Of a DNA stretch of 64,000 nucleotides, positions 3,736 through 45,720 are shown one piece after another. A program made the translations under genes and the position numbers. Below the pieces are notes generated by a model. It did not search any database and was not told the origin of the DNA. It saw only the letters and a program-made list of their open reading frames with translations. The DNA comes from Sphyrna mokarran (Eukaryota), in assembly GCA_024679065.1 (NCBI GenBank), contig JAGIQG010000104.1, forward strand, positions 1-64,000, in the 5' to 3' direction. The first letter of the stretch is position 1. Each line of letters begins with the position of its first letter.

Positions 3736-4904
3736 GTATTAGAAGTCACAAGTTATTTTCTCCAAGATTTTGGGTTCAGACTTTCCCCACTTTTTCACTG
3801 ATGCGATGCTGACAGCTCTACATTTCCAGGTTTAAAATGTTCTTCCAGGTTAGGTGGACTTTTGCATAATGTGTTCCTTTTTTAGTCACAATCCTATTTC
3901 CCAGCAGCATTGAAAGATACTGGTCAATCCTTCCGATTTTTTATCCCAAAATTTCTTCAGTCAGGAACGTTCACACAAATCCTGACTTTTTTTGATACAC
4001 ATTTACTAAAAATATTTTGGATAGAAAATATTAACCTGTTTGTTCAGTGACTGTAATTAATGTCGGAATTAATTCAACAGTAGTAATCGTGTCTCTGGAG
4101 CATTCCCATCCATGCTTCATAAAGGAGTTATGCACGGTGTCATTAGGAGCGTCACAGTGATAAGCAGCTCCACACAGGGGGAGTCGAGGTGTCAAAATTG
4201 GGAGAAAGAAATTGCAAGCTTTCGGCAATGGATCTGAATCCACGAAAAGTAGATCTGGATGTTCCCACAATGGTTCAGCATCTGAGGGGCACAGATCAGA
4301 ATGTTACAACAATTGAGAGGAGTTTATCCACGATACTTTCCATTCTTTCTCAAGATTGGCTGTATACAACTGAGCGTGTTGAATATATACTGAAACTGAT
4401 TCGATACTTTTACTATCCGATCCTGGCTATTGTTGGTGTTCCTGGTAAGTATCTCCACTGATCATTAATGGTGTAGACTGTATTTAACACTGCCACTCTT
4501 GCCGTCTGCTCTACCCTGTTTGCGACTGTTGCTTATAGACTGCGTCCTTATTGAGTTATCACATGTACAAAGCGCTGATCACTGTGTTAATGATGCCTGT
4601 GTTGTGCAGTTGAGTTTGTAAAGATGTAAAAGATGTTTCGAAAGATGAAAAGGAATTGTGAAAACCGATAGGAAGGGGAAAAGTATGCGATCTCTTTAAA
4701 ATTTTGTTTTTGTTTGACACTAAGATGTTTAAATTGCAGAGTACACAGAAACTTTAAGTTGCAACATTTATTCCAGGGGCTAAAAACATAGGGGTTGCCT
4801 TGGTAACCGACATGGCAGGTTTTGCATTGTGGTCAGCAAAGTACGAAGTCTCACAACACCAGCTTACATTCCAACAGATTTATTTGGCACCTTTGGCTTT
4901 TGGA

Positions 4905-7685: not shown

Positions 7686-8729
7686 AAAAAGAGATTTAAG
7701 TGATTCAGTTTGTGTACAGATTTTTTTAAAATTTTGTTCCATCTGTAGTTGAAATGGTGACTTATTCCCCCGAATCATATCTAATGTTATTCTTCATTTC
7801 CTTCCTGACAGTGAATGCAATCACAATTGTGACACTGACGAGCAGAAACTGTGGTCTGTCCAAATGTGTCACTCGTTACCTGGTGGCCATGTCAGCGGGG
7901 GATCTGCTGGTCATTATCCTCGACCTGATGTTGAGACACATTCCCATTGTTTATTGGAGGAAGTTTTATTTCCTGCTATCGGTCCGTGTGTGTAACATCC
8001 ACGCCGTCCTGGTTTACGCAGCCACTGACTGTTCTGTCTGGTTCACCGTCACTTTCACCTTTGATCGATTTGTGGCCATTTGCTGCCCCAAGCTGAAAAG
8101 TAAATATTGCACTGAGAAATCAGTGGCTGTGGTTCTGGGAACAGTGATGGTGCTGAGCTTTTTAAAGAACATTTTCTAGTATTTTATGTTATTAAATCGG
8201 TATCAACTAGCGAACAACCCCTGGTTTTGTGGTTTCACATGGGAAACTGCAGAATCTCCTGTCTGGGGAACAATCGAGTTCCTTCACAACATTATAACCC
8301 CGTGTGTTCCATTTGTCCTGATTCTGCTGCTCAATGCTCTCACTGTCAGGCATATTTTAGTGAGGAGCAGAGCCCGCAGGAGACTCCGGGCTCACAAAAA
8401 TGGGGAGAATCTCAGAGACCCAGAGATGGAGAGTCGAAGGAAATCCATCATTTTACTGTTTGTTATCTCAGCCAATTTCATCGTCTTATGGTCGACATTA
8501 ATGATTTATTCAATATGGATTCGGATGTATAATTTGGGCTATCAGTCAATAACGTTGCATCTTTTTGTTATGGAATTGGGCTTCATGCTACAACTCACAA
8601 GTTGTTGCACAAATACTGCCATTTATGCTGTGACACAGACTCACTTCAGACAGCAGCTAAAAGATGTACTGAAATACCCCCTTACTGCACTTCTTCAACT
8701 CAATACACCCTGACAGGAAACTACAACCA

Positions 8730-21719: not shown

Positions 21720-21830
21720 CTCAAAATAACCACACCCTGGCCGTCATCAGGACACTGAAGACAATGCTCTTGAGAAACAAAATCCTTAGCCCCATCACCG
21801 TCAAAGACAAAAAGTTTGTCCTCAGTCGAT
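21720..21830 (-). CDS. TCR-delta-like transmembrane exon (optional in-frame extension to 21887)
   Basis: DRLRTNFLSLTVMGLRILFLKSIVFSVLMTARVWLF* has the TCR alpha/delta CART motif with charged R and K; acceptor TTTTGGCAG|, donor G|GTAAG just after the stop. Confidence 0.9.
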
Positions 21831-22360
21831 CTGCCAAAATGAGAAAAACAAATGATAGATCTGGTTTGGTACATATATCACTTGGAACTGAAAAAGAAAT
21901 GTATAACATTAATGTGTTTCTTTTCCATTATCTAACTGCTTGACTTTTGTCCGTCTGTCCATCCTGTCCGCTGTCCTCTGTCCACCAGCCCGACTGTCTG
22001 CTGTCGATCTATCTGCATCTGTCTTTCACCCTGAATCTCCCTCTCTCTCTCTCTCTCTGTCTCCTCCTCTCTCTCTCTTTCTTGCCCCCCACCTCCACCC
22101 CATCCCCCGCATCCCTCGATTTATATCTCTCTCGCCCTCACTCTGTGTGACGATCTATCTTTCTCTCCATCTCACTATATCTTTATCATTCGATATCCGG
22201 CTCTGTATCCCTGTCTATCTCTCAGTTATCAATCTGTCTATTTGCAGTATTTTCCATTGATAAATGTTGAATAAAGCACATACCGTTTTCTGTCGAGGAA
22301 TCATATCGACTTTTAAGGCATTTAGTTTGATCTGGAAGGACACAAAACAAACTGACTTAT

Positions 22361-22438
22361 TCAGTGAATAAGTGCCATTACTGTGACCATGTTTGTTCTC
22401 AATATCACTTCCAATAATATTGTTCTCATAACAAATAG
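22361..22438 (-). pseudogene. Connecting-peptide (hinge) exon with both splice sites mutated
   Basis: 78 nt, phase 1-1, AICYENNIIGSDIENKHGHSNGTYSL; flanked by TTCTTCGTGG| (AG>GG) and |ATAAGT (GT>AT). Confidence 0.6.
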
Positions 22439-25196
22439 CCACGAAGAAAGTGAGAATCAAACAGCACGATTGGATATGTTCAGTTCATTATTCACAACGG
22501 AGAAACATTGATAACTCTGCCATTTAGTTCAGCCCAAATCTGAGTTCAAAGAGTGTAGGTTCGATTACCCATCAGGGATTAAACCCCAGAATCCAGACCA
22601 TTCCATCGGGGCGGTATTTCACTGTCTTCCGAAGAAGTGGTGAAACCGAGGCCTGATTTCAGCTCTGCAGTGGATTAATGATATCAGGACATTTCTCCAG
22701 AGGAGCGGGATTCTCCAGTACCCTGGTTAGTATTTAATACTTTCCTAAATTCGGTGATACACCAGCAGCTGCGGATCCTGGACACTGCCGTGAACTATAA
22801 TGGTTCGCTCTTATTATTTTTATTCACTTATGGAATGTGGATATCGCTGGCAGGTCAGCATTTACTGTCAATCCCTAATTACCCCCTTCAGAAGATGGTT
22901 GTGAGTCCCCTGATTGAAACTCTCCAAGTCCGTGAGGTATGCATACACACAGGGCCCTTAGGGAAGAAGTTCCAACATTTTCATAGAGCGACAGTGAAGG
23001 AAATGCCAAAGTATTTCCAAGTCAGGATGTTAAGTGATAATGGTGTTCCCAGGCATTTGCTGCCCTTGTCCTCCGAGATGATATATAATTTTGTAAATGT
23101 GCACACCTTTATCATGGAATCCTAGAGGCGTAGGCCAAAGTCATAGGTAGAAGAAGGATTGGAATGAGGTGTTCACTGAATGTTAAAATGACGGCGTGAG
23201 CTTGTTGGGCTGAAGTGCTTGTTTCCTGTGCTGTGTTGTTCTTTGTTCTTTGATAACGGCCATGAGTTTGGAAGGTTCAGCAGAAAGAGACTTGGAGAAT
23301 CACTGCTGTGTATCTTGTGGATGGCAAACTCTGCTACCACTGTGTTTTGGTGGTGGAAGAAGTGGATGTTTGTGAATGAAGTACTTGATGCTAAAGCGGC
23401 ACAGGTGCACAGTGGTTAGTACTGTTGCACCCCCCTTGCCCTCCCCCCCACCTCCATCCCTTTCCTCCCCCCACGCACCCCCCACCCCCACCCCCCCACA
23501 CCGTGCCCACTGCGACAGGGACCTGGATTTGATTCCCGGCTTGGGTGATTGTCGGTGCAGAGGTGCAGAGTCTGCACGTTTTCCTCTTGTCAGCGTGGGT
23601 CTGATCCACAGGATACACAGCAGTCATTCTCCAAGTCCGGTTTCCTCTGAAAGACGTGCTGATTAGATGCATTGGGTCATGCTACATTCTTCCTCAGTGT
23701 CCCCGAACAAGTGCAGAGTGTGGTGATTAGGAGACTTTCACAGTAACTTCATTGCTGGTTTAATCTAAGTCTACTTGTGACATTTAAAAAAAACATTTAA
23801 TCAAGCGGAGCTGTTTTGTGCTGTTTAGTCAAATTTCTGAGTGTTGCTGGAGCTGCATTCATCAAGCAAGTGGTTAATACACTACCACAGTCATGATTAT
23901 GTCTTGTGGATGGTGCAGAGGATTTGGGAGTTTAAGAGACACGTTATTCAGCACAGGATTCCCAATCTCCGCCATGCTCTTGCAGTCAGAGCACTTGTAT
24001 GGTTAATCCAGTTCAGCTTCTGAGCAACGTTAACCCTCAGGCTGTTGATAGTGTGGGTGGACCATTTAGAAATCTACAAGGAGGCATGTACAGATTGAAT
24101 AGTCAGAAACTTCTTTTTCTCTCAGTATGGAAGAGTCAATTATTAAGGAGCATAGAGTTAAGGTTTGAAGGAGATGTGCGAGGCATTTATTTTTTACACA
24201 CAGGATGGTGGATGGTGGAACTCGCTGCCAGGAATGGTAGTGGAAGCAGATACGATAGTGAGTTTTAAGAGGCATCTGGACAAATACATGAATAGGATGG
24301 GAATAGAGTGAAATGGCGCCGGAAATGTGGGAGATTTCAGTTCAGTCGGGGCAGCATGTTCAGTGCAGGCTTGAAGGGCCGAAGGGCCTGTTCCTGCGCT
24401 GTAATTTTCTTTGTTCTTTGTTTCAGTCATGGTAACGCCAGTAAATGACAAGAACCGATTGTTACCTTCTTTCCTGTTGGAGTTGGTCATTGTCTGGAAC
24501 GTGGGTGGTGCAATGTTATTTGCAGCTTGTCAGTCCAAGCCTGGATAATGTCCAACTATTGCTACATTTGTAATGCATTACTTCATGATCTGAGGGATCA
24601 TGAATGGTGCTGAACATTGTTCAGTTATCAGCGAACATCCCAACATCTGACCTTAACAATGGATTGAAGGTGATTGATGAAGCAACTGAAGCTGATTGGT
24701 TCTGAGACACTGAGGAACTCCTGCAGTGAAGTCCCGAGACTAGAATAATTGACCTTCAATCATTAGTCAGCTAATCTTTCAAAAAGACAACATTCTGAGG
24801 GACAATGACGCCGAAAGTGTTCAGGGGATGGATAATATTTAGGGACGTTCTTCTTGTCATAAAACACTCTCAGGGGAGGCAGGAGCGCAGTGATATTGTC
24901 AATCCAACGATCCAGAATATTAATGTGTGTTCAAATTCACTGACAGATGCGAAATTTGAATGTTAAAGAAATACAATTAGAATTCTAATGATGACCAATG
25001 GAATTATTGTCGTTTATCATTAAAACTCATTTGGTTCACTAATATCCTTTAGGGAAGGAAATCTGCCGTCCTTACACTGCCTGGCCGGTAAGTGAATCTT
25101 AAATGCCCTCTGCTGAAGGGCAATTTAGGATGGGCAATAAATGCTGGTCAAGCCAATGACACCCACATCACATGAACGGAAATAAAATAAACTTAC

Positions 25197-25508
25197 CAAT
25201 CCCAGCTGTGGGTAGGGTGTTTACTGAGTAAATCTGATTATTGTGAAATGCCTTGCACGTGATGTTTGGCGATTTCCCGGATTGGGAGAAAAAGAGGAAA
25301 CCCGAACTCCTGTAATTCCCGCTCTCCAATGGGACACTGGATCTTGTCACATTGACCTCCTGGCCGGATCCTGTGTACAGGGAGAGCTGGATTGCCTTGG
25401 GGGAGAAGTCCGAGGCCAAGCAGACTGCAGCGGTGCTGGTGTTGGTGGCTCCCGGTGGCACTGGCGGGTAAAAGACACTCAATTTTGGTTCTTTTAGGTT
25501 TTTCACTT
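25197..25508 (-). CDS. TRDC: TCR-delta-like constant Ig (C1-set) domain exon
   Basis: KVKNLKEPKLSVFYP...AAVCLASDFSPKAI...GNYRSSGFL...ITCKAFHN; TTTTTTCAG| acceptor, G|GTAAGT donor, 312 nt open frame. Confidence 0.85.
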
Positions 25509-25799
25509 CTGAAAAAATTAAGAAATAAAAGGAAATAACCAGAATATAAAAGATTACCTCTTCCACCCTCTAATCCCATTCGATTAGACCCGCATTTTTC
25601 CTGTGCTTTAACCCGATATAAGTTTCTACACTGATTACTGAATGCTGAGAATGGATTAGCAATCTTATTCCCTTGGCGGAGAGAAGTCTGAGGAGTGACG
25701 CCGCTCTCTCACTCTCTCTCTCACACACACACTTAGTTCCCACTGTTTTTTTTTTAATATTTTAAAGAGAACAATATTTGGACAAGAGACTGATGGAGG

Positions 25800-26095
25800 G
25801 CGGCACTGTAGCACAATAGTTAGCATTATTGCCTCACAGCGCCAAAGACCCAGGCTCAATTCCGGCCTCGGCTCACTCTCTGTGTGATCTCCCGGTGGGT
25901 TTCGTCCGGGTGCTCCGGTTTCCTCTCAGAGTCCAAGGATGTGCGGGTTAGGTTGACTGGCCAAGCTAAATTGACCGTAATGTCAGAGGATTAGTTGAGT
26001 AAATATGTGGCATAATGAAGTTAGAGCCTGTGTGGAATTAGGGTCAGTGCAGTCTCGATGGGATGAACGGCCTCCTTCTGTACTGTAGCGATTCT
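25800..26095 (+). mobile_element. HE1/V-SINE in the J-C intron
   Basis: GGCGGCACTGTAGCACAATAGTTAGC head; GGGTGCTCCGGTTTCCTC core. Confidence 0.75.
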
Positions 26096-27100
26096 TTGAT
26101 ACACTTTTTCCTTCTCCCTGAGTAGAAGGAGGCCATTCGGCTCACCCACTATTCAATGAAATCGCGACTGATCTGATGTGATAATCCTCAACTCCATTTT
26201 CCCACAATATCCCCATCAGCCTTGTTTTCTTGCAGATTAAAAACCTGTCCATCCCTGTATTCAAAGTATTTAATAGCAGCCCTATACAACCATCTGCGAT
26301 AAAGAAGTCCACAGATTCAATACCATTTAAAGGAAGAAATTCTTCATCTTCTCTCTCTTTAAATCGACAACCCCTCACTCTTGGTTTTAACCTCTAGTCC
26401 TAGACTCTTCCAACAAGGAATAAAATAGAAGTCTACATTAGCCCTTCGTATCTGAGCCGTCTAAAGACAACCCAACTGACTTTTCTAATCCCATTTCCAG
26501 CACTTGGCTCATTACTCTGTATGATATGGCATCAAAAATGCATAACCAAGTGTTGTGAGAGTCTCTGTGGCTATGACTGTATCAGATAGTGAGTTCCAGA
26601 TTTCCCTCTAACTCTCCTACCCTGTACCTTAAATCAATGTCTCCTCTACACCACACCCTTCCCTCCAGAAAAAACGTTCCTCATTGATCCCTCTAAAATG
26701 GGGATAGGTGTTTTCCTGACTATGTTATCTCTGCCCCTCATTCAGGTGAAGTGACTTTTACAGTGTTGCCTAACTTTATGACTCTAATGGGGTGGGCCTG
26801 CTTTAACTATCTATCAATGTATCATTTAAAAGCATTACACACAACCCATTTCAGGTGGGTTTTTATGATAAAGACCAGTTAGATGTTTTAAGGAAACAAT
26901 CCTGATATGTGGAAACAATAAAGCTCTCATCTGCTCTATCTCAATGCCCAGTGAAGCTGTTCTTTGGATTCCCAATGAAAACTGCTCACCCGTTCCATAC
27001 AAAAACAGTAATAATTGAAATATCACAGCGACTGTATGTCTCAATGAAGCCATAGGGGAAAAATAACATATTGAGCAATCATCCAGAGTTAGTTACTTAC

Positions 27101-27163
27101 TGGGTTCCACTATCAGCCTGGTTCCAATGCCAAAGATGAGCTTTCTAGTCTCGCCATATGTCA
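27101..27163 (-). CDS. TCR alpha/delta-type J segment with 12-RSS (27164-27191)
   Basis: TYGETRKLIFGIGTRLIVEP, FGxG motif, A|GTAAGT donor; RSS CACAATC-12nt-ACAAGATCT. Confidence 0.9.
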
Positions 27164-27431
27164 CACAATCTTTCATTCCATAACAAGATCTCTTGCGGTC
27201 TGGTCCACCTCTCTCTGTCCCTCTGTCGTGTCCCACTTGGGGTCGGTCAGACTAGTAATGGTGTACTCTCAGTGAATATCACTGTGGGAATGGAAGGAAG
27301 TTGTGGGGAGTGCTGTGGAGGGGGAGGGGGTGTGGGTAATGTTGGCTACAATTGAGAGAGCTTGGTGTTCTGCTGAGTGGCTGGGAGGTTATTGACCCGC
27401 TTTAAGGAGGTTTCAGCTATTATGGTACCAC

Positions 27432-27553
27432 GATATAATCCCCACCATGTTCAGGTTTCTGTACCCCTCTCTCCGGGTTCTATATCACGGTGTCTATAAT
27501 GCCCACCATGTTCAAGTTTCTGTACTGCTCTCTCCGTGTTCTCTATCACTGTG
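27432..27553 (-). repeat. Tandem 61-bp duplication carrying two 23-spacer RSSs
   Basis: RSS1 CACAGTG(27553-27547)-23-ACAGAAACT; RSS2 CACCGTG(27492-27486)-23-ACAGAAACC. Confidence 0.85.
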
Positions 27554-27859
27554 TTGTGCGTTGACTCAGTGCACAGTAGTACACAGCCGAGTCGCTCAGT
27601 TGCAGTTTGGAGATTGTTAATCGGCTGATTTTCTCGCCAGAATCGATAGAAGCAGAAATTCTGTCTCTGGCAATGTTTTCTTTGTTGTCCCCTCCTGAAG
27701 TGTGTGCCTGTTGCAATAATTTCGGAGCCTGCCCTGGAGATTGGCTGTACCAGTGTACTGTGTACTGACATAACCCTGAATATTCACATCTTAGAATAAC
27801 CGTGTTCCCTGCAGCAGAGGTTTGGAGAGACGGATTCTTGGACACCAGGGAACTGGAAT
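27554..27859 (-). CDS. Leaderless 'supporting' TCR V segment (NAR-TCR-supporting Vdelta type)
   Basis: DSSSLVSKNPS...LRCEYSGLCQYTVHWYSQSPGQAPKLL...DSAVYYCALSQRT; extra CDR1 Cys; CCTTCAG| acceptor; 23-RSS; no spliceable leader found. Confidence 0.9.
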
Positions 27860-29789
27860 CTGAAGGATTAAAAAAAATGATGTTTTATCCACTTTTTTAC
27901 CGTGCAACATGGGAATCACAGGAATATGTCTTCATTTGCGGTATTCTAATTAAATATTATAAAATTTCATATTAAATCTGATGGAACTATATTCACTCTT
28001 ATTACGATACAAACTAGTGAAGCCTGAGGCAATATCTCTTACACACCAAGTACTACTGATCTGGAATGTATTGTCATAATGAGTTGTGGGAGCAGATTCA
28101 ACAGTGAATGACCAGTTGGTCATTACCAAATGGTCAAGTACCGGCACAGGAAAGGCAAGCAGGGTAATGGGGAAAAATTCGTGGGCATTAGGAAGAATTG
28201 GATTTCATTTATAAAGGGCCAACATCTACAAGAAGGGCCGAATGCCATTCTTCCACCCTACATGATCCTGCGATGGAGAGTACAATCCAGCTTCTATTTT
28301 CATTATTGACAGACAAGCACTAGGGAACATTTTATCATCAGTGAAGCAATCCGTTTCCAGACATGATTGTCCCAGGATAACCCAGATAAGCTCCACACCA
28401 AGCACAGCAAGACCCAACAGAGTGTTATTGTGATTCATCAGCTCCAAAGGGGCTGAACGAAGCTGCACATCGATGGTCAAATGTCATTAATTTATTTTGG
28501 TTTAAAACTTCTGGGAGTTTATGTTTGCCTTTTCATCCATTTGTTTATCTATTTTTCTATTTCTATTAAAATAGGACTGTTTAATCAGTTTCATTTTATT
28601 TATATTTTCATGTTCTATTGTTCGGTGTCTTGTAATCATGAGAACTTGTCTCAAAGTCTCCCAGCTGTCTGTTGGGTTCAGTTTGTTCAGTTTCCACAGT
28701 GGTTTTACAGTTACACACAGGGAACCGTCTCTTCCGGCTCTCTGACAATTTTAATTCCTTCTGCACATTAATGTTCTTTCCCTGGTTTTTGGGGCAGGGT
28801 TTTCTCTATGTTTTACGTTATTAAGAGTCTGCCAAAATATATTGTACCATTTGGCCCAACTGATTTATGTTGCAAATTTATCCAAACTTACCTCCTCCAT
28901 CCAGAAATCCAGTTGATATTTACATCCAGCTCCCTTTGTAAATCTATTACCTTCTCCCCCCGTATGCTCAAGATGCCCCACAAATGCAACAAAACTACCT
29001 TCTCCAACAGTTCTATGTGCCAAGTTCTGACAATCCACCGTACAGTTATTACTCTCAATCTGTTTATTAGTTTTATTAGTGCCAATCATGTATAAATTGT
29101 TCTAAACTCACATACAAATAAAGAACTGGTCAACACCCACACATTATACAATCAGAATTTAAACGGTTTCTATGAATTCTTCTCTTCTCTCTTTACTTTC
29201 CAGAGGGAACGCTAAAATCTTCCCTGTTTTCAACAAAGTTGGGGCTAAATCACCAACACATTCCTGAACTTATCCAGTAAAAAAAGATCCTTTTAGTTTG
29301 GAAAATCTTGTCTGTAATTGCCTTGAATACACAAAACCACTGAGCATTCACAGTTTTCTGATATAAACGCTTCTCAGATACTCATAAAAGGGAATAACCG
29401 AAAGAATTTATCTTCTTCTCAATTATTGACAATTATTTAAAAGTTGTGACCCAAAGCTAAAGGCGTCCCTGCCTGGACACATGCCCAGAATCTGTTTCGT
29501 CAAACCTCCGGAGAATATTTTCTGTTGAATTGGCTGTCATGCTTCTGAACTCTTAAGAAGGTAGCATTTGGATACTTAATACCTTCACATAGGGCAATCG
29601 CTTTCAGTATAGAACCTGGTGTGGCAATCATTGGTTCACTTACTTCAAAGAGATAAGCCATTCCTGATGGTTGTGTTAAAATTGTTTCAGAGTGCTCCAG
29701 ATTGGGTTTCCAGATTGGGCCACATTTCACTTATCACCACAATCAATTCCTCTTCCAAGTGGTGTTGAAAACAGAGGAATTCAATATCT

Positions 29790-30455
29790 AGGGGAACGGA
29801 TGGGGTGAACGGCAGATCAATGGCAGATGGAACTTAATCCTGAAAATTGCATGGGGATACATGTTGGGAGGAGTAACAAGACAAGGGAGTATTTAATAAA
29901 TGGCAGGACACTGGAAAGCTCAAATGAACAGAAAGATTTGATTCCTTGTCCACAAATCACTGAAGGCGATAGGACATGATAATTGGGGCAGACGGGACAA
30001 TCGCTTTAATAACTCATGGCATAAATTATTAAAACTGCCGGGTTATGTTAGAGCTGTACAAAGATTTCGATAGGCCACATCTATCGCCTCACTATTGAAA
30101 GAATATGATTTCACTGAAAGGGTACGGAGGAGATTCACCATAATGTCGCCTGCGAAGGAGAATTTGAACTTCAAGATGAGCCTGGATAAGCTTATATTGT
30201 GCTCTTCAGAGCAGAGACCCACTTTGAGATCTATAAGTTTATACAGGAATTGACAGGGTAAATGGGAATCAAATTCTCCTCACAGTTGAAGGGTCAATAA
30301 ATAGGTGGCATATGTTTAGAAAGGGAGATGGACGTAGATGAACTTGCGAAACATTTAAGGCTGTGGGTCTAGTGCTGGAAGATGGAATTCATGAAGATTT
30401 TGTTGGTACAGACTTGATAAGCTGAAGGGCCTATTCCATGTTATATAATTCTGTG
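29790..30455 (+). mobile_element. Decayed CR1 fragment (paralogous to 31620-32050)
   Basis: Shares idiosyncratic sequence such as GAAGGCGATAGGA..GGGGCAGACGGGAC with 31620-32050. Confidence 0.75.
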
Positions 30456-31036
30456 ATAGCAGATTTCAATATGCTGTACCAACAGGCAAGGAAGACATCA
30501 TGGAACATTCTTCATCTTAGAAAGAAGTAAAAGAAACAATCTTTAATTAGTGGAATGGCCTTGGAAGTAATTGACAACTTAAATGGCCAATCAGGGCATT
30601 AATGGGAGGATTGGGTTTGCCATGGTCATTTCCGGTGCCATGTCACAGCCAAGTACAATATCTGAATATTCCTCTTTCAGACGCCGCAACAATTTCTTTC
30701 TACTCAGTGCCTCGCTCAGCTTCATTACAGACAGCATGTAAAAGTAAACCATATTGCTTTATACTGATGACCATATTTACTACACCAGGTGGAAACGGCA
30801 GATTTCCATCCGTAACGGGTTTATCATCGCCATACTGAGACTGGTCTTTACTTCCAGTTGCTCACATAAATTTCCATTAAATTGCACCAGCTGCCCTGGT
30901 GAGATTTGACCGTGTGCAGGCTGAGCACTGGGTCACAGAAATACTAACGCAATTACATTACCACCACATCACCAACTCCACAGTGCGGACATGAACCCAG
31001 TAAGTCTGTAAGATATTTCGGCTTGGAGTCACTTAC

Positions 31037-31384
31037 CAGCTGTGACATTCACCACCGTTCCAGGTCCGTCTGCATAACCCGCTTTTGAAACGCTAGTTCC
31101 ACATCCATGTTTATACTGAGCTTTACAGTAATAGATGGCGGTGTCTTCAACTCTCACATCCTGAATTTCAAGAGAAAATGTGTTTTGTGCTTTATTCACC
31201 GATACAACAAATCTTCCTCCGCTGGAGATCCTCTCCCGTTCTTTCCCGCTCTGGGTTTGTCTAAAGAAATGTCCGCCCTCCAAACTAGAATAATCAGCTT
31301 TGAAAACACAGGTGATGGTGAGAGACTGACACTCCTTCCTGGTCACCGCTGTTGGGCTCTGTGTCACTGACTGACTGAAAGATT
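31037..31384 (-). CDS. Germline-joined, leaderless NAR-type V(D)J exon
   Basis: 348-nt open phase 1-1 exon ESFSQSVTQSPTAVTRKECQSLTITC...DTAIYYCKAQYKHGCGTSVSKAGYADGPGTVVNVTA; no RSS inside; G|GTAAGT donor; leader donor mutated GT>AT at 31531. Confidence 0.9.
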
Positions 31385-31619
31385 CTGGAAATTAAACACA
31401 GAGAGTTTAATGGGCCGTCAGAGCCAAATCACACAACAGAGTTAAACCCCAAACAATGTCTGTAATTGGGATAAATTGGAGCAGATTTATATCCAATCCA
31501 CAGAATGTGGGTTAGTTTGAATAGTACTCATAGGGTAAACAGACTCCCTCCTCACTCTCTCACTGCACTGTGTGTATGTCTGTGTGTGGAGGATGGTGGG
31601 TATGTAAGCTTTCACATGG

Positions 31620-32050
31620 AACGAAGATTAACAGAATGGCTAATAGTGAGGAAGAAGTCAAAGATTGTCGGATAATATTGACAGCTTGGTCAGATGGCAG
31701 GTCAATGGCTCATGGAACTTAACACTGAAAAGTGCGAGTGGATGCACGGTGGGAGGAGTAACAAGACAAGGGAGTATTTAATGAATGACAGAGCCATGGA
31801 AAGCTCAAATGAACAGAAAGATTTGACTCCTCATCCACAAGGCCCTGAAGGCGATAGGAGATGATACTAGGGGCAGACGGGACGATTGTCTTTATAAGTC
31901 GTGCAAAAACAAAGAATATTAAAACAGCAGGATTATGTTAAAGCTGTACAAAGCTTTCGATAGGCCACATCTGGAGTACTGTGTACAGTGCTGTTAGCCT
32001 CAGTATTGAAAAAAATATGATTTCACTGAAGGTTTAGAGAGGAGGTTTGT
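31620..32050 (+). mobile_element. Decayed CR1 fragment replacing the leader/promoter region of the joined V
   Basis: Paralogue of 29790-30130. Confidence 0.75.
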
Positions 32051-35000
32051 GAGAGAGTCTGTGTGTGTCAGAGAGAGAGAGGGAGAGGAGAGAAAGTGTA
32101 TGAGAGAGAATGTGTGATAGAGAGCCACAATGAAGTGTTTGATTCGATTTCTGGCTTGGGTCACTATCTGTTGGAGTTTGTAAGGTCTCCTCCTGTTTGT
32201 GTGCGTTTCCTCCGGGTGTTCCAGATTCCTCCACATTCTGAAAGATTTGCTAGTTCAGCGCATTGATCCGAATAGGCGCCAGACTAGGGGAATTTCACAA
32301 TAATTTCATTGCACTGTTAATGTAAGCCTCACTTGTGACTAAAAAAAAACTTTATCCTCTCGTGTTTCTCCAAACTCTGGGGGAAAAAAGACCCACCATG
32401 TTCCCCCCTTGAAGAGAGAGTGAATTGTTGCTGGTTTCTTCCCTAAGGAAAGCATACATTGATTCAATAGTTCCAACTGATAGGAAAAGCAAATTAGTGC
32501 AGATGCTGGTATCTGAAATCAAAAGAGAAAATGCTGGAAAATCTCAGCAGGTCTGACAGTATCTCTAAGGACAGAAAAGAGCTGATATCGCGAGTCCAGA
32601 TGACCCTTTGTCAAACATTATCTTGAATGCCTTCAACACTGACTATCCACAACTCTCGGGTGCACATAATTCTCACATTCACCACAATGGCTTTGACTGA
32701 AGAAATCTCTCCCCTTCTCAGTCCAAATGGCTGAACAGGTTTTCTGCAAATCTGACCCCAAGTTACAGACTTTCTACTCTAGAAAAACACAAACACCCAG
32801 AGTTTGTCTTGTCATATCCTTTGAGAATAAAATAAATTCTATTGAGTTCACTCCTTATTCCTTTAATCTTAATGTAAGTGAAAAAGGCAATGGGTCTTCA
32901 ATCCCTTCTCAAAGGACAAGCATTTTATCCAAAGACTCTATTTGAAGAACTATCGTTAAATTCCCTCTGAAGTATGTAGATCCTTCCTAAACAAAGAGAC
33001 CAAATATTACACTACAACCATAATCTCCACAAATTTCAATACCAATCCTGAGATGTTAGGGTGTTGTATTTTCAGTTTTCTTCAGAAACAATCCAATCCT
33101 TCTCTCTCTGTCGATTAGAACAAAGAACAAAGAATAAAACAGCACGGGAAACAGCCCCTTCGGCCCAACGAGCCCGCTCTGCCACCCCGATATTCCCACC
33201 TCTACCCGCGATCCCTGTCCATGTTTATAGATCTATGGTTTAAAAACCAAATTTGAGACAATTTAGGGAGAATTTGTTTTGCTAATTGCTTGTTCTAATG
33301 GAATATCACCTTCGCATTTGTTTGCTGTTGTTCCTGTTCCCTTTCATACGATTTTCACATCATCTTCACTCTCTTATTGCACTGTGTGATTTCAATTAAC
33401 AGTAATCAGGAATACAAATATATTACAGCAATAGCTCAGAAATAACCATCACCGCCCTTCTGTATGTCCTGACCCATTGGCAGGACAGACTCAGCAGAGC
33501 TAGCGGCACAATGGGGTATAGTCGGGAACCACTTGCCCTGAGAGTTCTCAACATCGACTCTGAACCGCATAAACACTTCTGACATCAGGTCAGACATTGA
33601 CAAGGGAACTGCTGCTGACTACTACGTGGCTCCGCTGATGTATCTAAACTCCTCTATTTTGAACAAAAAAAAATGAAGGAAGCAGTGAAGATGGCAAGAA
33701 CACAGAATGAACTCTGTTTGGGGGGCTTGAATATTCATCACTACGATTGGCTCGATAGCATATAGCTCGACATAACTGCTAAACTGGAACTGTGGCAGGG
33801 AGCAAGGAAACTGCCAAGAGGGCAAAACACATATTTGACCTCATCCTCAGCAAAATAATTGCCGCAGAGGCATCACCGGAGCAGTGTCAGCAGGACTGAC
33901 AATTTACAGCTCTTGTGGACACAAAGTCCTGTCTTCACATTGAGCTACGCTCCATCCTGTAGTCTGACACAGTCACTGTGCTAAATGGGATAGGGTTTGA
34001 GCCGATCTAGCAACTCATTACTCGGCATCCATGAGGCATTATGGACCATCAGCAGCAGCATTGCACTCAAACCCAATCTGTAACCTTGTGGCTCAGCACA
34101 TCCACTGCAGTGACATTAGCAGACACGGGATTAACACTGGTTCAATGAAGACTCCAGGAAGCAACAGCAGCAGCAACACCAGGCAATGCTATAAGTGATT
34201 TGTCAATCCAGTAAAGATAAGGCTAAGCTTTGGCAACAATTTTCATCCTGAGGTATTGAGTGGATGATCCATCTCAACCACCTCCAGAGGTCCCTAATGT
34301 CACTGATGTCAGTTTCCATCAAACTGAATTCACTCCATGTGATTTCAGTACCGGCTGAAGGCAATGGATGCTGCAAAGACTGTGGGCCCTGGAAATATGC
34401 GTGTAACAGTACAGAAGACCTATGCTCCAGAATTAACCACTCACGGTGGAAAATGAAAAGAAAAGTTATTGTTTATATTGAGGAAAATTTAAAAAAATAT
34501 ACAATGTCATTGATTCCAATCATTGACTTCTCTAATACAAAATTCCTTCAAACCTAGAATAAGTATTGTTTAATTCTCTGTTCGCAGTCTGGGTCAGATA
34601 ATGATGGAGTCGCTGCCTTTAAATGACATCGATCTCATTCAGCCGGTAGCTTATTCACATTGCACGGCTGGGACTGCGAACTACTGCTGAGGAGAGAGCT
34701 CTGACACTCCGCTGTGGGGCTGTAAACGGCAGACATATCTCTTACATTCACTTCTTACAACCAGACTGGATTCTAGAGTGTCCTCAATTTAAGTTTGTTG
34801 AAAAAAAAACTATCAGGAGTGTCAGACTGGTTGATGTTGATGTGCCTCTTAAAGCAACGTTCGCCCAGATGTTGTCAACTCTCTCAGAACCCTGAACACC
34901 AGGACCCGCACCCCGCGCCCCACCACCCTCTCGCCCCGAACCCCCTCCGCCCCCGCCCCAGTCTCCCCCCAAAGTTTCATCCCACTACCGCTGCCCCGCT

Positions 35001-35209
35001 GACAACCGACTCCATCAGCTCTCAAAGAGACTTTCCCCGGGACTGACTGGAGCCGGTTCCAGAATCACACCCTGCTCCCAACTCCTAATCTGTAACGGAT
35101 GATTTTCCACAGGAAGATCCGATGGGATTGAAATACAGATCACAATGATAAAGTGAAGGGGGAGATTAAAGGAGACAGACTGTAACAAGACGGGATTGGA
35201 GTCACTTAC

Positions 35210-35267
35210 CGGCTGTGACCCTCACCACCGTCCCGGTTCCATCCACATAATCATATTTCCAATCATA
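35210..35267 (-). CDS. NAR-type J segment with 23-RSS (35268-35306)
   Basis: YDWKYDYVDGTGTVVRVTA, G|GTAAGT; CACAGTG-23nt-ACAAAAACC consensus RSS. Confidence 0.92.
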
Positions 35268-35646
35268 CACAGTGACTCCGCCCTCAGTCACCTCTGTACA
35301 AAAACCACCGATATCCCAATCTGCCGGAAAACCATCACCAGACATCGAGAAGTGTCCAATTATTCGGGGGATTTAAAATCAATAAATAATATTCAGCGTT
35401 TCAACGTCTCTGTCGGTTCAAACTGTAATTTTGTGAGGCCCGATCTCTCAGTAAATGGCCGCAGGAAGGAAATATTCACTTTATATATAGCCAAAAATAT
35501 CAAGGAAAGATGTGAATGGTGGAGATTACAGTAGAAATAATCCCGATCACAGCGATAATATCATCAAACCAATGATTCACTCTCTGGGTACTGAGTATTG
35601 ATAGTGTAATTATGCACAGGTATTTGTTCAGCTTCTTTCCACAGTG

Positions 35647-35662
35647 ACTTTCCCAAATATTA
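35647..35662 (-). other. NAR-type D segment flanked by 12/12 RSSs (35619-35646 and 35663-35690)
   Basis: GGTTTTGAT-12-CACTGTG [TAATATTTGGGAAAGT] CACTGTG-12-ACAAATACC; open frames NIWES and IFGK. Confidence 0.85.
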
Positions 35663-36074
35663 CACAGTGTTACAATTCAGCATCAAAACCTCGGGGACTG
35701 GGTGGGATGTTGGAACATGAATTAAACAGAGCGGAAAGTGGCTCCCAGTTCCGGCTGTGAGCCGAGGATCCCATCTGGTGTCAGGGTTTGTAACTGGGAT
35801 CAGTCATTTCCATTTTCAATTCACCGACAGCACTCCCGGGAATGACAGCCCCATCCACTCACACTCCGTATTTATAAACCTCAACATAGCAACGGTGATA
35901 ATCAGGTCTTATTAAAAATAAACTGTGGCATCAGGAGTGTGAGGGATTGGCGGGTAGTGGGATTGGGGGGCGCGGTGGTGGTTCAGGGTAGATTAACTCC
36001 GGTTTTCCCTTTGGTTCTGTGAGAATCCGCAAAGAAAGTTTTTGTATCGCCGGAAGCTGAGGTCCATCACTGTG

Positions 36075-36353
36075 TCTTGTACTTGGCTTTACAGTAATAG
36101 GTGGCGGCGTCTTCAACTCTCAAATCCCGAATTTCCAGCGAAAATGTCTTTCCTGCTTTGTTCACAGACACAGTAAATCTCCCTCCGTTGGAGATCAGCT
36201 CCCACTCCTTCCCGGGCTGGGTTTGTTTGAAGAATTCGCCGTTTACTAAGCGAGCATAAGCAGAACCATACAAATCACAAGTGATGGTGAGAGACTCACA
36301 CTCCTTCTTGGTCACCTCTGCCGGGTTTTGTGTCACTGACTGACTGAAAGATC
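36075..36353 (-). CDS. Rearranging NAR-TCR V segment with 22-nt-spacer RSS (36074-36037)
   Basis: RSFSQSVTQNPAEVTKKECESLTITC...GGRFTVSVNKAGKTFSLEIRDLRVEDAATYYCKAKYK; IgNAR-like short FR2/CDR2 region, FR1 extra Cys; CACAGTG-22-ACAAAAACT. Confidence 0.92.
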
Positions 36354-36501
36354 CTGGAAATTAAACACAGAGAGTTTAATGGACCATCAGATCCGAACCA
36401 CACAACGGGGCTAAAACCCCAAACAGTGTCTGTAATTGGGATGGACTGGGACAGCTTTATATCCAATCCACACAATGTGGGTTAGTTTGGTCGGTACTCA
36501 C

Positions 36502-36544
36502 GGGGTAAACAGGCACACAGGGTGAAAACAAGAAGGATTCCCAT
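36502..36544 (-). CDS. Leader exon of the NAR-TCR V
   Basis: MGILLVFTLCACLP followed by C|GTGAGT phase-1 donor. Confidence 0.88.
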
Positions 36545-40544: not shown

Positions 40545-41530
40545 GAATGTGAGAAGCTGAAGTTTCCAGCTGAAGAGATTCCAGTGTCATTGAGCAGCTG
40601 AACTGGGGAAGCCTTTGGGCAGATACTGTGCTGCTGCTATTTCTATTCCTAACCACCAGTCGTCCCTGACACAGCCCAGGCGCTGCTCCGCGCAGTGTCA
40701 CCTCTTGCCCGCTCCGGCCCTGTTGCTGCTCGTTGGCGGAACATCCGGGCCTGTAGAAAGGCGGAGCCAACCGCCATATTGTCGTGACGTCACCATCAGC
40801 TCCTCTCCCCCGGTCGAGGAAAACCTGACAGTTCAGAAATGTAGAAAGTGAGAGAAATTCCCACCCGGAAATCCAGCCAGGAGCGGAATTAAAATTGAAT
40901 AAAATACATATTTTCATAAAGAGACAGGTGGCAGAACCGCGCATGTGCTGTAGTATTTTCCCAGAACACACCGCGTGATTGAAAAAAGTAGGCAATGAAA
41001 AAAAGAAACAAGATGCTCCCGAATCGAGAAGGAACCGAAAGTCTGAGGATGTAAATAATAATCATCAAGATTCAAACTACTAAAAGATGTAACTGCCTGG
41101 GCGCATGTGCAGCAGTGGAATTTCCCCCAGAGCGCAGCGCGCAGGATGCCGTCTCCCCTGGCAACGCAAGATGGCCGCTGGCCGTCTCCCCTGGCAACGC
41201 AAGATGGCCGCCGGCGGTGGGTGTGATTGCGGCGCAGGCGCAGTGAGGTCCTGCCTGCAGCCCATTGTCCAGATTGCCCCCCAGTGGATGTGGTGGGGAT
41301 GGTGCAGCAGATGGAGCAACAATCCCAGTTTCAATGGGGGAAGAGAAGCTGCAATGCTGCTCCCTGTTGTTCACTCCTCTCCCCAGTCTCAGCATTGCAG
41401 AGTGTTTAAACAAGAGGGTGCATTGTCACAGCAGCACCTTGACCTGCAGTTTAAGTTTATTTATTAGTGTCACTAACAAGTCGGCTTACATTAACGTTGC
41501 AATGAAGTTACTGTGAAAATCCCCCAGTTG
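40545..41530. repeat. ~1-kb CpG-rich promoter-like cassette, copy 1
   Basis: Inverted copy at 52960-54020 and direct partial copy at 63773-64000; YY1 CCGCCATATT 40771, CRE TGACGTCA 40785, 33-bp units with CAAGATGGCCGC. Confidence 0.8.
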
Positions 41531-44570: not shown

Positions 44571-44749
44571 ATGCTGACTGCGCACAAAGATGCCCTGAGG
44601 TTGTGTAAGGTGCTATATAAATGCAAATTCTGTTGACTCCAGCCCAGTTACTGTATTTTGCAGCAACATCATCAACACTCCCCCAGTGTCATCACAAACA
44701 AGGTTCAGTCCTGAATCTGATGAACAACAGCAGAATCAGAGCAGAGCTG

Positions 44750-45720
44750 TTATCTGTGAACTTGCTGGTGTTTCACCAGATTGGATGATTCGATAAATCT
44801 CTTCCCGCACTCGGAGCAGGTGAACGGCCTCTCCCCAGTGTGGATGCGCTGGTGTGTCAGCAGGTGGGATGATCGTGCAAATCCCTTCCCGCACTCAGGA
44901 CAGGTGAACGGCCTCACCTCAGTATGAATTTGTTGGTGTGTCAGCAGGTTGGAGGACTGAGTGAATCCCTTCCCACACTTGGAGCAGATGAATGGCCTCT
45001 CCCCAGTGTGAACTCACTGGTGTACAGTGAGATGAGATGATTGCCTGAACCCAGTCCCACAGTGTGAGCACTGGAACGGTCTCTCCTCAGTGTGAACAAG
45101 CTGATGGGACACCAGTTCACCAGAACTTTTAAAGCACTTCTCACACTCTGGACATTTAAAAGGTCTCTTGTCGGTGTGAACTCGTTGGTGTGTTTGAAGC
45201 TGGGTTGCTGTCCTGAAACTCTTCCCACATTTTGAGCAGCTGAACAGTGTGTACTCGGTGTGAATGCGCTGGTGCTCCCTCAGTCCGTGAGGGCTTTTAA
45301 AGCTCTTCTCACAGTTGGAGCATTGAAACTCCCTCTTGTCAGTGTGAACTTGCTGGTGATCAGTAGGTGGGACGAGGGAGTGAATCCGTTTCCATACACC
45401 GAGCAGGTGAACGGCCTCTCCCCAGTGTGGAGTCGCTCATGCAGCTGAAGACAGATAAACTGAGTGAATCTCTTTCCACATACGGAACAAATGAAAGGCC
45501 TCTCCCCGGTGTGTCTGCGTCGATGAATTTCCATCTCAGATGGGGATCTGAATCCCTTTCCACAGTCCACACATTTCCACGGTTTCTCGCTGGCTTGAAC
45601 AGTACTTCCTGCTTCCATGTTTAAAGGCCGATGATATTCAAGTCCTGATGAATCGAGTGACTCTGTCAGATTGTGATGCTTAGTTTGACTTTCCTGACCG
45701 TGAACCTTTCAAATAATCTG
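44750..45720 (-). pseudogene. C2H2 zinc-finger gene, frameshifted
   Basis: EKPWKCVDCGKGF...[14 protein letters not shown]...HTGERPF; later fingers continue in other frames. Confidence 0.85.

Follow-up and report, generated by a model that had tools for sequence, protein, structure and literature searches.

A probable self-contained NAR-TCR-type delta-chain gene with its own constant region in Sphyrna mokarran

The locus described here raises the question of whether a TCR gene of sharks can be organized as a self-contained cluster, in which a supporting V segment joins its own J without a D and is followed by its own C, or whether such segments form part of the TCR alpha/delta translocon. Shark TCR genes have been described as translocons, with cluster organization reserved for immunoglobulins (PMC6795676, PMC12227049). 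The initial annotation of this DNA proposed a stand-alone NAR-TCR cluster combining an alpha-like VJ join with a delta-like C. Our analysis of the surrounding 64-kb stretch (hereafter, the window) indicates that it probably harbors a complete and autonomous NAR-TCR-type delta-chain gene. Rearrangement likely takes place between the gene's own segments, and this shark lineage likely has several clusters of the kind.

The gene occupies 14.8 kb of the minus strand, on which all of the segments described below are located, in the order leader-V1-D-J1-V2-V3-J-C-hinge-membrane exon, with every part open and the splice phase kept. None of the ten gene segments carries a stop or a damaged splice site, acceptors and donors are canonical, and no assembly gap falls inside the gene. 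The splice routes with and without V2 both remain open as far as the terminal stop, and chains of three domains (V1-V3-C) and of four domains (V1-V2-V3-C) are in frame alike, while the spacings between segments are also similar to each other (412, about 380 and 390 nt). Besides confirming on this strand that the supporting V has its own J 390 nt away and its own C, these results extend the gene beyond the interval from V3 to C covered by the initial annotation, adding the hinge and membrane exons on the 3' side and the NAR cassettes on the 5' side.

Window-wide scans placed all antigen-receptor sequence within this gene. Scoring of mismatches against the consensus yielded six RSS-like sites with at most two mismatches in the 64-kb window, against 0.23 expected from 30 simulated windows, and all six of these strong sites lie within the receptor gene, as do the three matches of a J-motif scan. 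The published J-alpha pattern, which we corrected by one letter to fit the 34-nt rule of the same paper, gave a single exact match across the window, at the J of the supporting V (27163-27101), and no J-like near match elsewhere in the 64 kb. Moreover, tblastn searches with 73 proteins returned antigen-receptor matches confined to 21724-36544. Besides the segments of this gene, the J-motif scan, the J-alpha pattern and tblastn thus disclosed no V, J or C in the window, bearing out the single J and single C noted at the outset as well as the lack of other V/J arrays in the flanks, which are free over 21.7 kb below and 27.5 kb above the gene, although the contiguous sequence above it amounts to only about 15 kb owing to a gap of 131 N at 51919-52049.

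The 5' half of the gene carries the marks by which NAR-TCR has been recognized, namely a NAR-type N-terminal V with a leader, a Cys in the a-b loop and no WYRK Trp, followed by a leaderless supporting V with a Cys in CDR1 (PMC1845163). The leader exon of V1 (36502-36544) begins with ATG, has an intact GT donor in phase 1 and matches Mustelus NAR-TCR leaders, and V1 itself (36075-36353) has the a-b loop Cys and lacks the WYRK Trp. V1 is followed by an RSS with a 22-nt spacer (36037-36074), by a D of 16 nt with two open frames (35662-35647) between two 12-RSS (35619-35690 including both signals), and by J1 (35267-35210) with a perfect 23-RSS (35268-35306), the last two together covering 35210-35306. 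Downstream, V2 (31037-31384) is a germline-joined NAR VDJ exon that is open, keeps its acceptor and donor, shares the a-b loop Cys and the missing WYRK Trp with V1 and has an extra Cys in CDR3. Its leader survives as a relic (31532-31542) in which the donor GT has changed to AT, so that V2 would be usable only as an inner exon. The CDR3 of V2, including the Cys, is equal in length and pattern in models from the white shark and the basking shark (P0019, P0021, P0033, P0037), which points to one old germline joining event retained across shark orders. A disulfide bond between this CDR3 Cys and the loop Cys of V1 may be speculated upon.

The supporting segment V3 (27554-27859) is a V-delta of the leaderless kind, with a CDR1 Cys at residue 31, 73-81% identity to the supporting Vs compared and no leader candidate within 940 nt upstream; together with the a-b loop Cys and the absent WYRK Trp of the NAR cassettes, these features support the assignment to the NAR-TCR type. 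The V3 23-RSS (27515-27553) has a perfect heptamer at 27553 and two nonamer mismatches, whereas the 12-RSS of J (27164-27191) differs from the consensus at 5 of 16 positions (two in the heptamer, three in the nonamer) and was missed by the strict scan. The coding ends of V3 and J are 390 nt apart. When all 22 CAC-starting sites of this interval were examined in a relaxed scan, none belonged to an RSS facing V3 with fewer than five nonamer mismatches, and therefore no intact D stands between V3 and J, which confirms the facing 23-RSS and 12-RSS of the initial annotation. Two elements on which that annotation was silent also lie in the interval. A lone perfect heptamer without a nonamer (27280-27286) may be a vestige of a D or a chance occurrence, and a second 23-RSS (27454-27492) lies in a 61-nt tandem copy with 52 of 61 positions identical. 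Joining of V3 at this second signal would retain a stop and be non-productive. The tandem arrangement (27434-27553) recurs behind supporting Vs of Mustelus, Pristiophorus and Hemiscyllium. Its interpretation as a decayed local D was rejected, given that 4 of the 20 tails that could be tested in proteins of other sharks (P0003, P0035, P0040, P0045) read through the same tandem signal.

The alpha-like character attributed to the V3-J join held in part. Its topology is indeed that of a V joined to a J without a D, and V3 and J stay in frame when joined bluntly or at a 3-nt microhomology located 1-2 nt from their ends (chance level, 8%), while three 2-nt microhomologies are out of frame. A TG motif, a feature described for primordial alpha joins in which the V RSS starts at position 15, is present at positions 8-9 of V and 1-2 of J and would join in frame, but only after trimming of 13 nt; besides, the V3 RSS begins at position 23 from the Cys codon, compared with 15 in zebrafish V-alpha. 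The J itself (27101-27163), with an FGxG motif and a GT donor, is a homologue of shark J-delta and matches catshark J-delta together with its 5' flank, so the likeness to alpha extends to neither the J nor the RSS position.

The constant part is of the delta type, as first suggested. It consists of a C exon encoding a C1 domain (25197-25508), a connecting-peptide or hinge exon of 48 nt with an interchain Cys (22284-22331), an uncertain 15-nt micro-exon that is frame-neutral and has a weak donor (21873-21887), and an exon for the transmembrane segment and tail (21721-21830) with an Arg and a Lys, a stop and a donor after the stop. The C domain and 20 of 20 relatives show the TRDC exon-1 signature CLxxxFxP, while the TCR-alpha signature CLxTD(F/xF) occurs in neither the window C nor the relatives (signatures from the methods of PMC10322711). 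Moreover, among the relatives are proteins of stingray and skate that bear the name TCR delta constant, as well as one of catshark with 50% identity in the C domain. From its name, species and scaffold size, we infer the latter to be the delta entry in table S1 of PMC12227049, with a separate alpha gene behind it. An alpha identity, as the RefSeq names "alpha chain-like" would imply, was rejected on this evidence. Other comparisons did not separate the two chains: the membrane exon alone scored nearly the same with mammalian alpha and delta (30 vs 28 bits), and the C domain was predicted as a full C1 sandwich (pLDDT 87.5) for which the fold and atlas searches returned generic C1 domains, uninformative on alpha vs delta.

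The organization as a cluster gains independent weight from related C genes in Mustelus. A search with C gave nine matches among 150 candidates, eight from Mustelus asterias (75-83%) and one from Heptranchias (55%), and cluster look-ups added five Mustelus models, making 13 C-bearing models in Mustelus asterias, each on a contig of its own; the 13 contigs differ in length, from 34 kb to 20 Mb. Short contigs carry most of these copies, and haplotype duplication could account for some of them; nevertheless, eight distinct C domains were counted among ten full-length models compared (a count that excludes two partial models and the most recently found one), which is more than the alleles of one locus could supply. 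A NAR V, a supporting V and the C occur in a single model in 7 of the 13, although the models were generated automatically and treat the V-J gaps as introns. The Mustelus units share 73-78% identity with the window from C to tail, and the existence of near-identical copies indicates that duplication is ongoing. RefSeq models such as XP_078059098.1 (P0004), which has the J most similar to that of the window, and XP_078061062.1 (P0001) have a C 76-81% identical to that of the window and agree with it in leader, NAR V, supporting V and membrane exon. The models are labelled "alpha chain-like" or uncharacterized, many have further J, and the C-bearing ones examined contain no second NAR V, unlike the window gene. 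Several have two or more J, or a V fragment, before C, so that a single J is not general in the family.

Outside Mustelus, at least one C each was found in Scyliorhinus canicula, Cetorhinus, Rhincodon, Pristiophorus, Chiloscyllium and Hypanus and at least two in Heptranchias, these counts being lower bounds from clustered, word-limited and non-exhaustive protein searches; a skate cluster had two members, one of them named. Among 41 relatives of V3, a C was present in 6 of 9 from Mustelus compared with 2 of 32 from other species. Phylogenetic analysis grouped the window C and the Mustelus C in one clade (SH-aLRT 97, bootstrap 82), while two other runs, the first of them under a mixture model, left this group unresolved, and all trees were built with no shark C-alpha as outgroup. 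Two C-delta genes of Heptranchias perlo (P0009 and P0011) are 82% identical and lie on one 1.7-Mb contig, one of them behind a NAR J and a supporting V; this pair is likely an independent duplication. In one automatic model of Cetorhinus maximus (P0014), a similar J follows a supporting V, upstream of further V and far from C-delta, and pairs of supporting V and J may thus predate the duplication of C. Altogether, the window gene likely belongs to a family of NAR-TCR delta clusters that are self-contained and show convergence with platypus TCR-mu.

The surroundings of the gene consist of a broken GPCR gene, broken zinc-finger genes, repeats and 11 tRNA genes. The tRNA genes lie on both sides of it (1811-2917 and 54461-63771). 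The GPCR gene, of the rhodopsin type (7730-8713, plus strand, likely first exon near 4147-4461), has an in-frame stop at 8177-8179, and a C2H2 zinc-finger gene (44700-45710, minus strand) is broken, with its parts in two frames. A pair of similar stretches, GC-rich and promoter-like, with short tandem repeats in opposite orientation, was recognized by eye and from matching ORF translations at 40600-41330 and 53060-54020, and a simple-repeat tract at 51100-52250 contains the sole assembly gap. That all exons of the receptor gene are intact next to broken GPCR and zinc-finger genes was counted in favor of a working gene. The same surroundings would also suit an orphon, that is, a recent segmental duplicate of the delta locus 3' end, which would owe its intactness only to its youth and would undergo rearrangement rarely if ever, and this reading could further draw on the weak J RSS, the decoy second RSS and the ongoing duplication evident from near-identical Mustelus copies. 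We regard it as unlikely, because the exons are all intact over 14.8 kb, related C-bearing units persist in Mustelus at the identity given above, and white and basking sharks retain the junction of V2.

A further question is how the gene relates to the alpha/delta region. In the white shark, NAR-TCR V cassettes are listed on chromosome 27 at 8.4-17.1 Mb, interspersed with IgM clusters and alpha/delta V genes (table S1 of PMC12227049); as they are spread over about 9 Mb, a self-contained cluster could still lie inside that region. The receptor gene may do so, and 64 kb is too short to place it outside a translocon, as the initial annotation did. This scattering, the J being an ordinary J-delta homologue, and those Mustelus models in which C is preceded by a V fragment and several J would be compatible with an additional J-C module located within the alpha/delta region, whose J also takes V-D joins from distant delta segments, so that the gene would not be autonomous and its junctions would contain D sequence. 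We give this reading little credence and rank it behind the orphon: within 27 kb upstream there is no V or D besides those of the gene, and V3, at 390 nt, is the nearest 23-RSS partner of J. In the canonical order TRDC-(TRAJ)n-TRAC, J-alpha segments follow C-delta. Weakest is the notion that this is the single canonical C-delta of the species, its D and other J lost by assembly error or located elsewhere and J-alpha beginning past the window, which could appeal to the N gap upstream, to a downstream view limited to 21.7 kb (in which the J-motif scan and the J-alpha pattern detected no J-alpha) and to the 79 kb separating the start of the annotated stingray alpha model from the delta model, but which is improbable in view of a gap-free gene, a catshark alpha model starting already 15.6 kb after the delta model (table S1 of PMC12227049), GPCR and tRNA genes instead of J-alpha as the next neighbors, the drastic loss that one J and no D would mean, and the many such C genes in Mustelus. 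An autonomous working cluster is the probable reading, for which the 390-nt spacing, the lack of a facing 12-RSS, the delta C, the Mustelus family and the platypus TCR-mu layout were counted, with the weak J RSS (5 of 16 positions off), the decoy second 23-RSS and the out-of-frame microhomologies counted against it.

RAG-mediated joining follows the 12/23 rule. In an autonomous cluster, RAG would join V1, D and J1 through their 22/12/12/23 signals to form a diverse, unpaired antigen-binding tip, and would join V3 straight to J by the same rule, with deletion of the 390 nt between them. With no D available and with blunt and microhomology joins in frame, the supporting loop would be short and of low diversity. 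Splicing could then produce V1-V3-C or, with V2 included, V1-V2-V3-C, and the chain would be expected to use its hinge Cys for pairing with TCR-gamma and its membrane Arg and Lys for assembly with CD3, a proposal that draws on this Cys, on the charges in the membrane segment and on the hypothesis published for NAR-TCR. Such a gene may have originated by duplication of the 3' end of a delta locus together with a NAR cassette, followed by loss of the D segments. A bolder extension, which we put forward only tentatively, is that multi-copy autonomous NAR-TCR clusters, each with its own C-delta, arose in one shark group and repeated the course of mammalian TCR-mu as far as a D-less support, that the conserved germline-joined NAR V forms a disulfide-linked spacer under the diverse tip of a four-domain chain in the present gene, and that such receptors define a separate T-cell lineage.

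Shark NAR-TCR clusters with their own C were not reported in the literature searched, which did not extend to the main nurse shark papers, and the novelty is accordingly provisional. Likewise, one supplementary file on the elephant shark gave no match for NAR-TCR, and no match was found in 11 of the 19 supplements of PMC10322711. If true, a family of NAR-TCR delta clusters would break the translocon rule for shark TCR and provide a second independent case of the TCR-mu path, in which a V-J-C-delta unit is duplicated, the D of the supporting V is lost and the cluster is multiplied. It would also make testable the idea that a supporting V of low diversity is a general need of three-domain TCRs, and the private C could serve as a marker for tracking T cells with this receptor.

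Among known systems, the closest is the NAR-TCR, a doubly rearranging TCR-delta, of cartilaginous fish (PMC1845163, PMC12227049), with which the window gene shares a V1 with a leader, a leaderless V3 with a CDR1 Cys and a delta C. As described, however, NAR-TCR has two VDJ rearrangements, three domains and cassettes placed in the delta locus, whereas here V1 has a D and the V3-J pair has none, V3 is followed by its own J at 390 nt and its own C at 2 kb, and the chain could have a fourth domain. Because the feature of two VDJ rearrangements fails, we would file the gene as a variant of NAR-TCR and not as a plain member. Table S1 of PMC12227049 also contains a white shark model in which two germline-joined NAR V precede a supporting V, resembling the V2-V3 order here, as well as a row designated "TCRa VVCtm".

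Similar layouts have been reported for TCR-mu. The platypus form, V1-Dn-J1-V2-J2-C, is likewise self-contained, with a VDJ tip, a delta-derived C and several clusters (PMC7615758, PMC3457774), and its supporting V joins J without a D (PMC7615758), as in the V3-J layout found here. Nevertheless, TCR-mu is mammalian and uses an IgH-like V, while V1 and V2 of the window gene are NAR-type and V3 is a shark V-delta, which argues for convergence and not membership; the platypus form also lacks an extra germline-joined V between tip and support, the place held here by V2. Marsupial TCR-mu (V-D-J-Vj-C) resembles the window gene in having clusters with their own C, arranged in tandem, and a germline-joined inner V (PMC7615758), but there the supporting V itself is pre-joined, whereas in the window gene the pre-joined segment, V2, is of the NAR type and V3 is still of the rearranging type. 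Finally, the second avian TCR-delta locus also combines an extra C-delta with V, D and J of its own and an antibody-like V (PMC5278385, PMC3457774), although its chain, unlike that predicted from the window gene, has two domains, with VH-delta and D and no supporting V.
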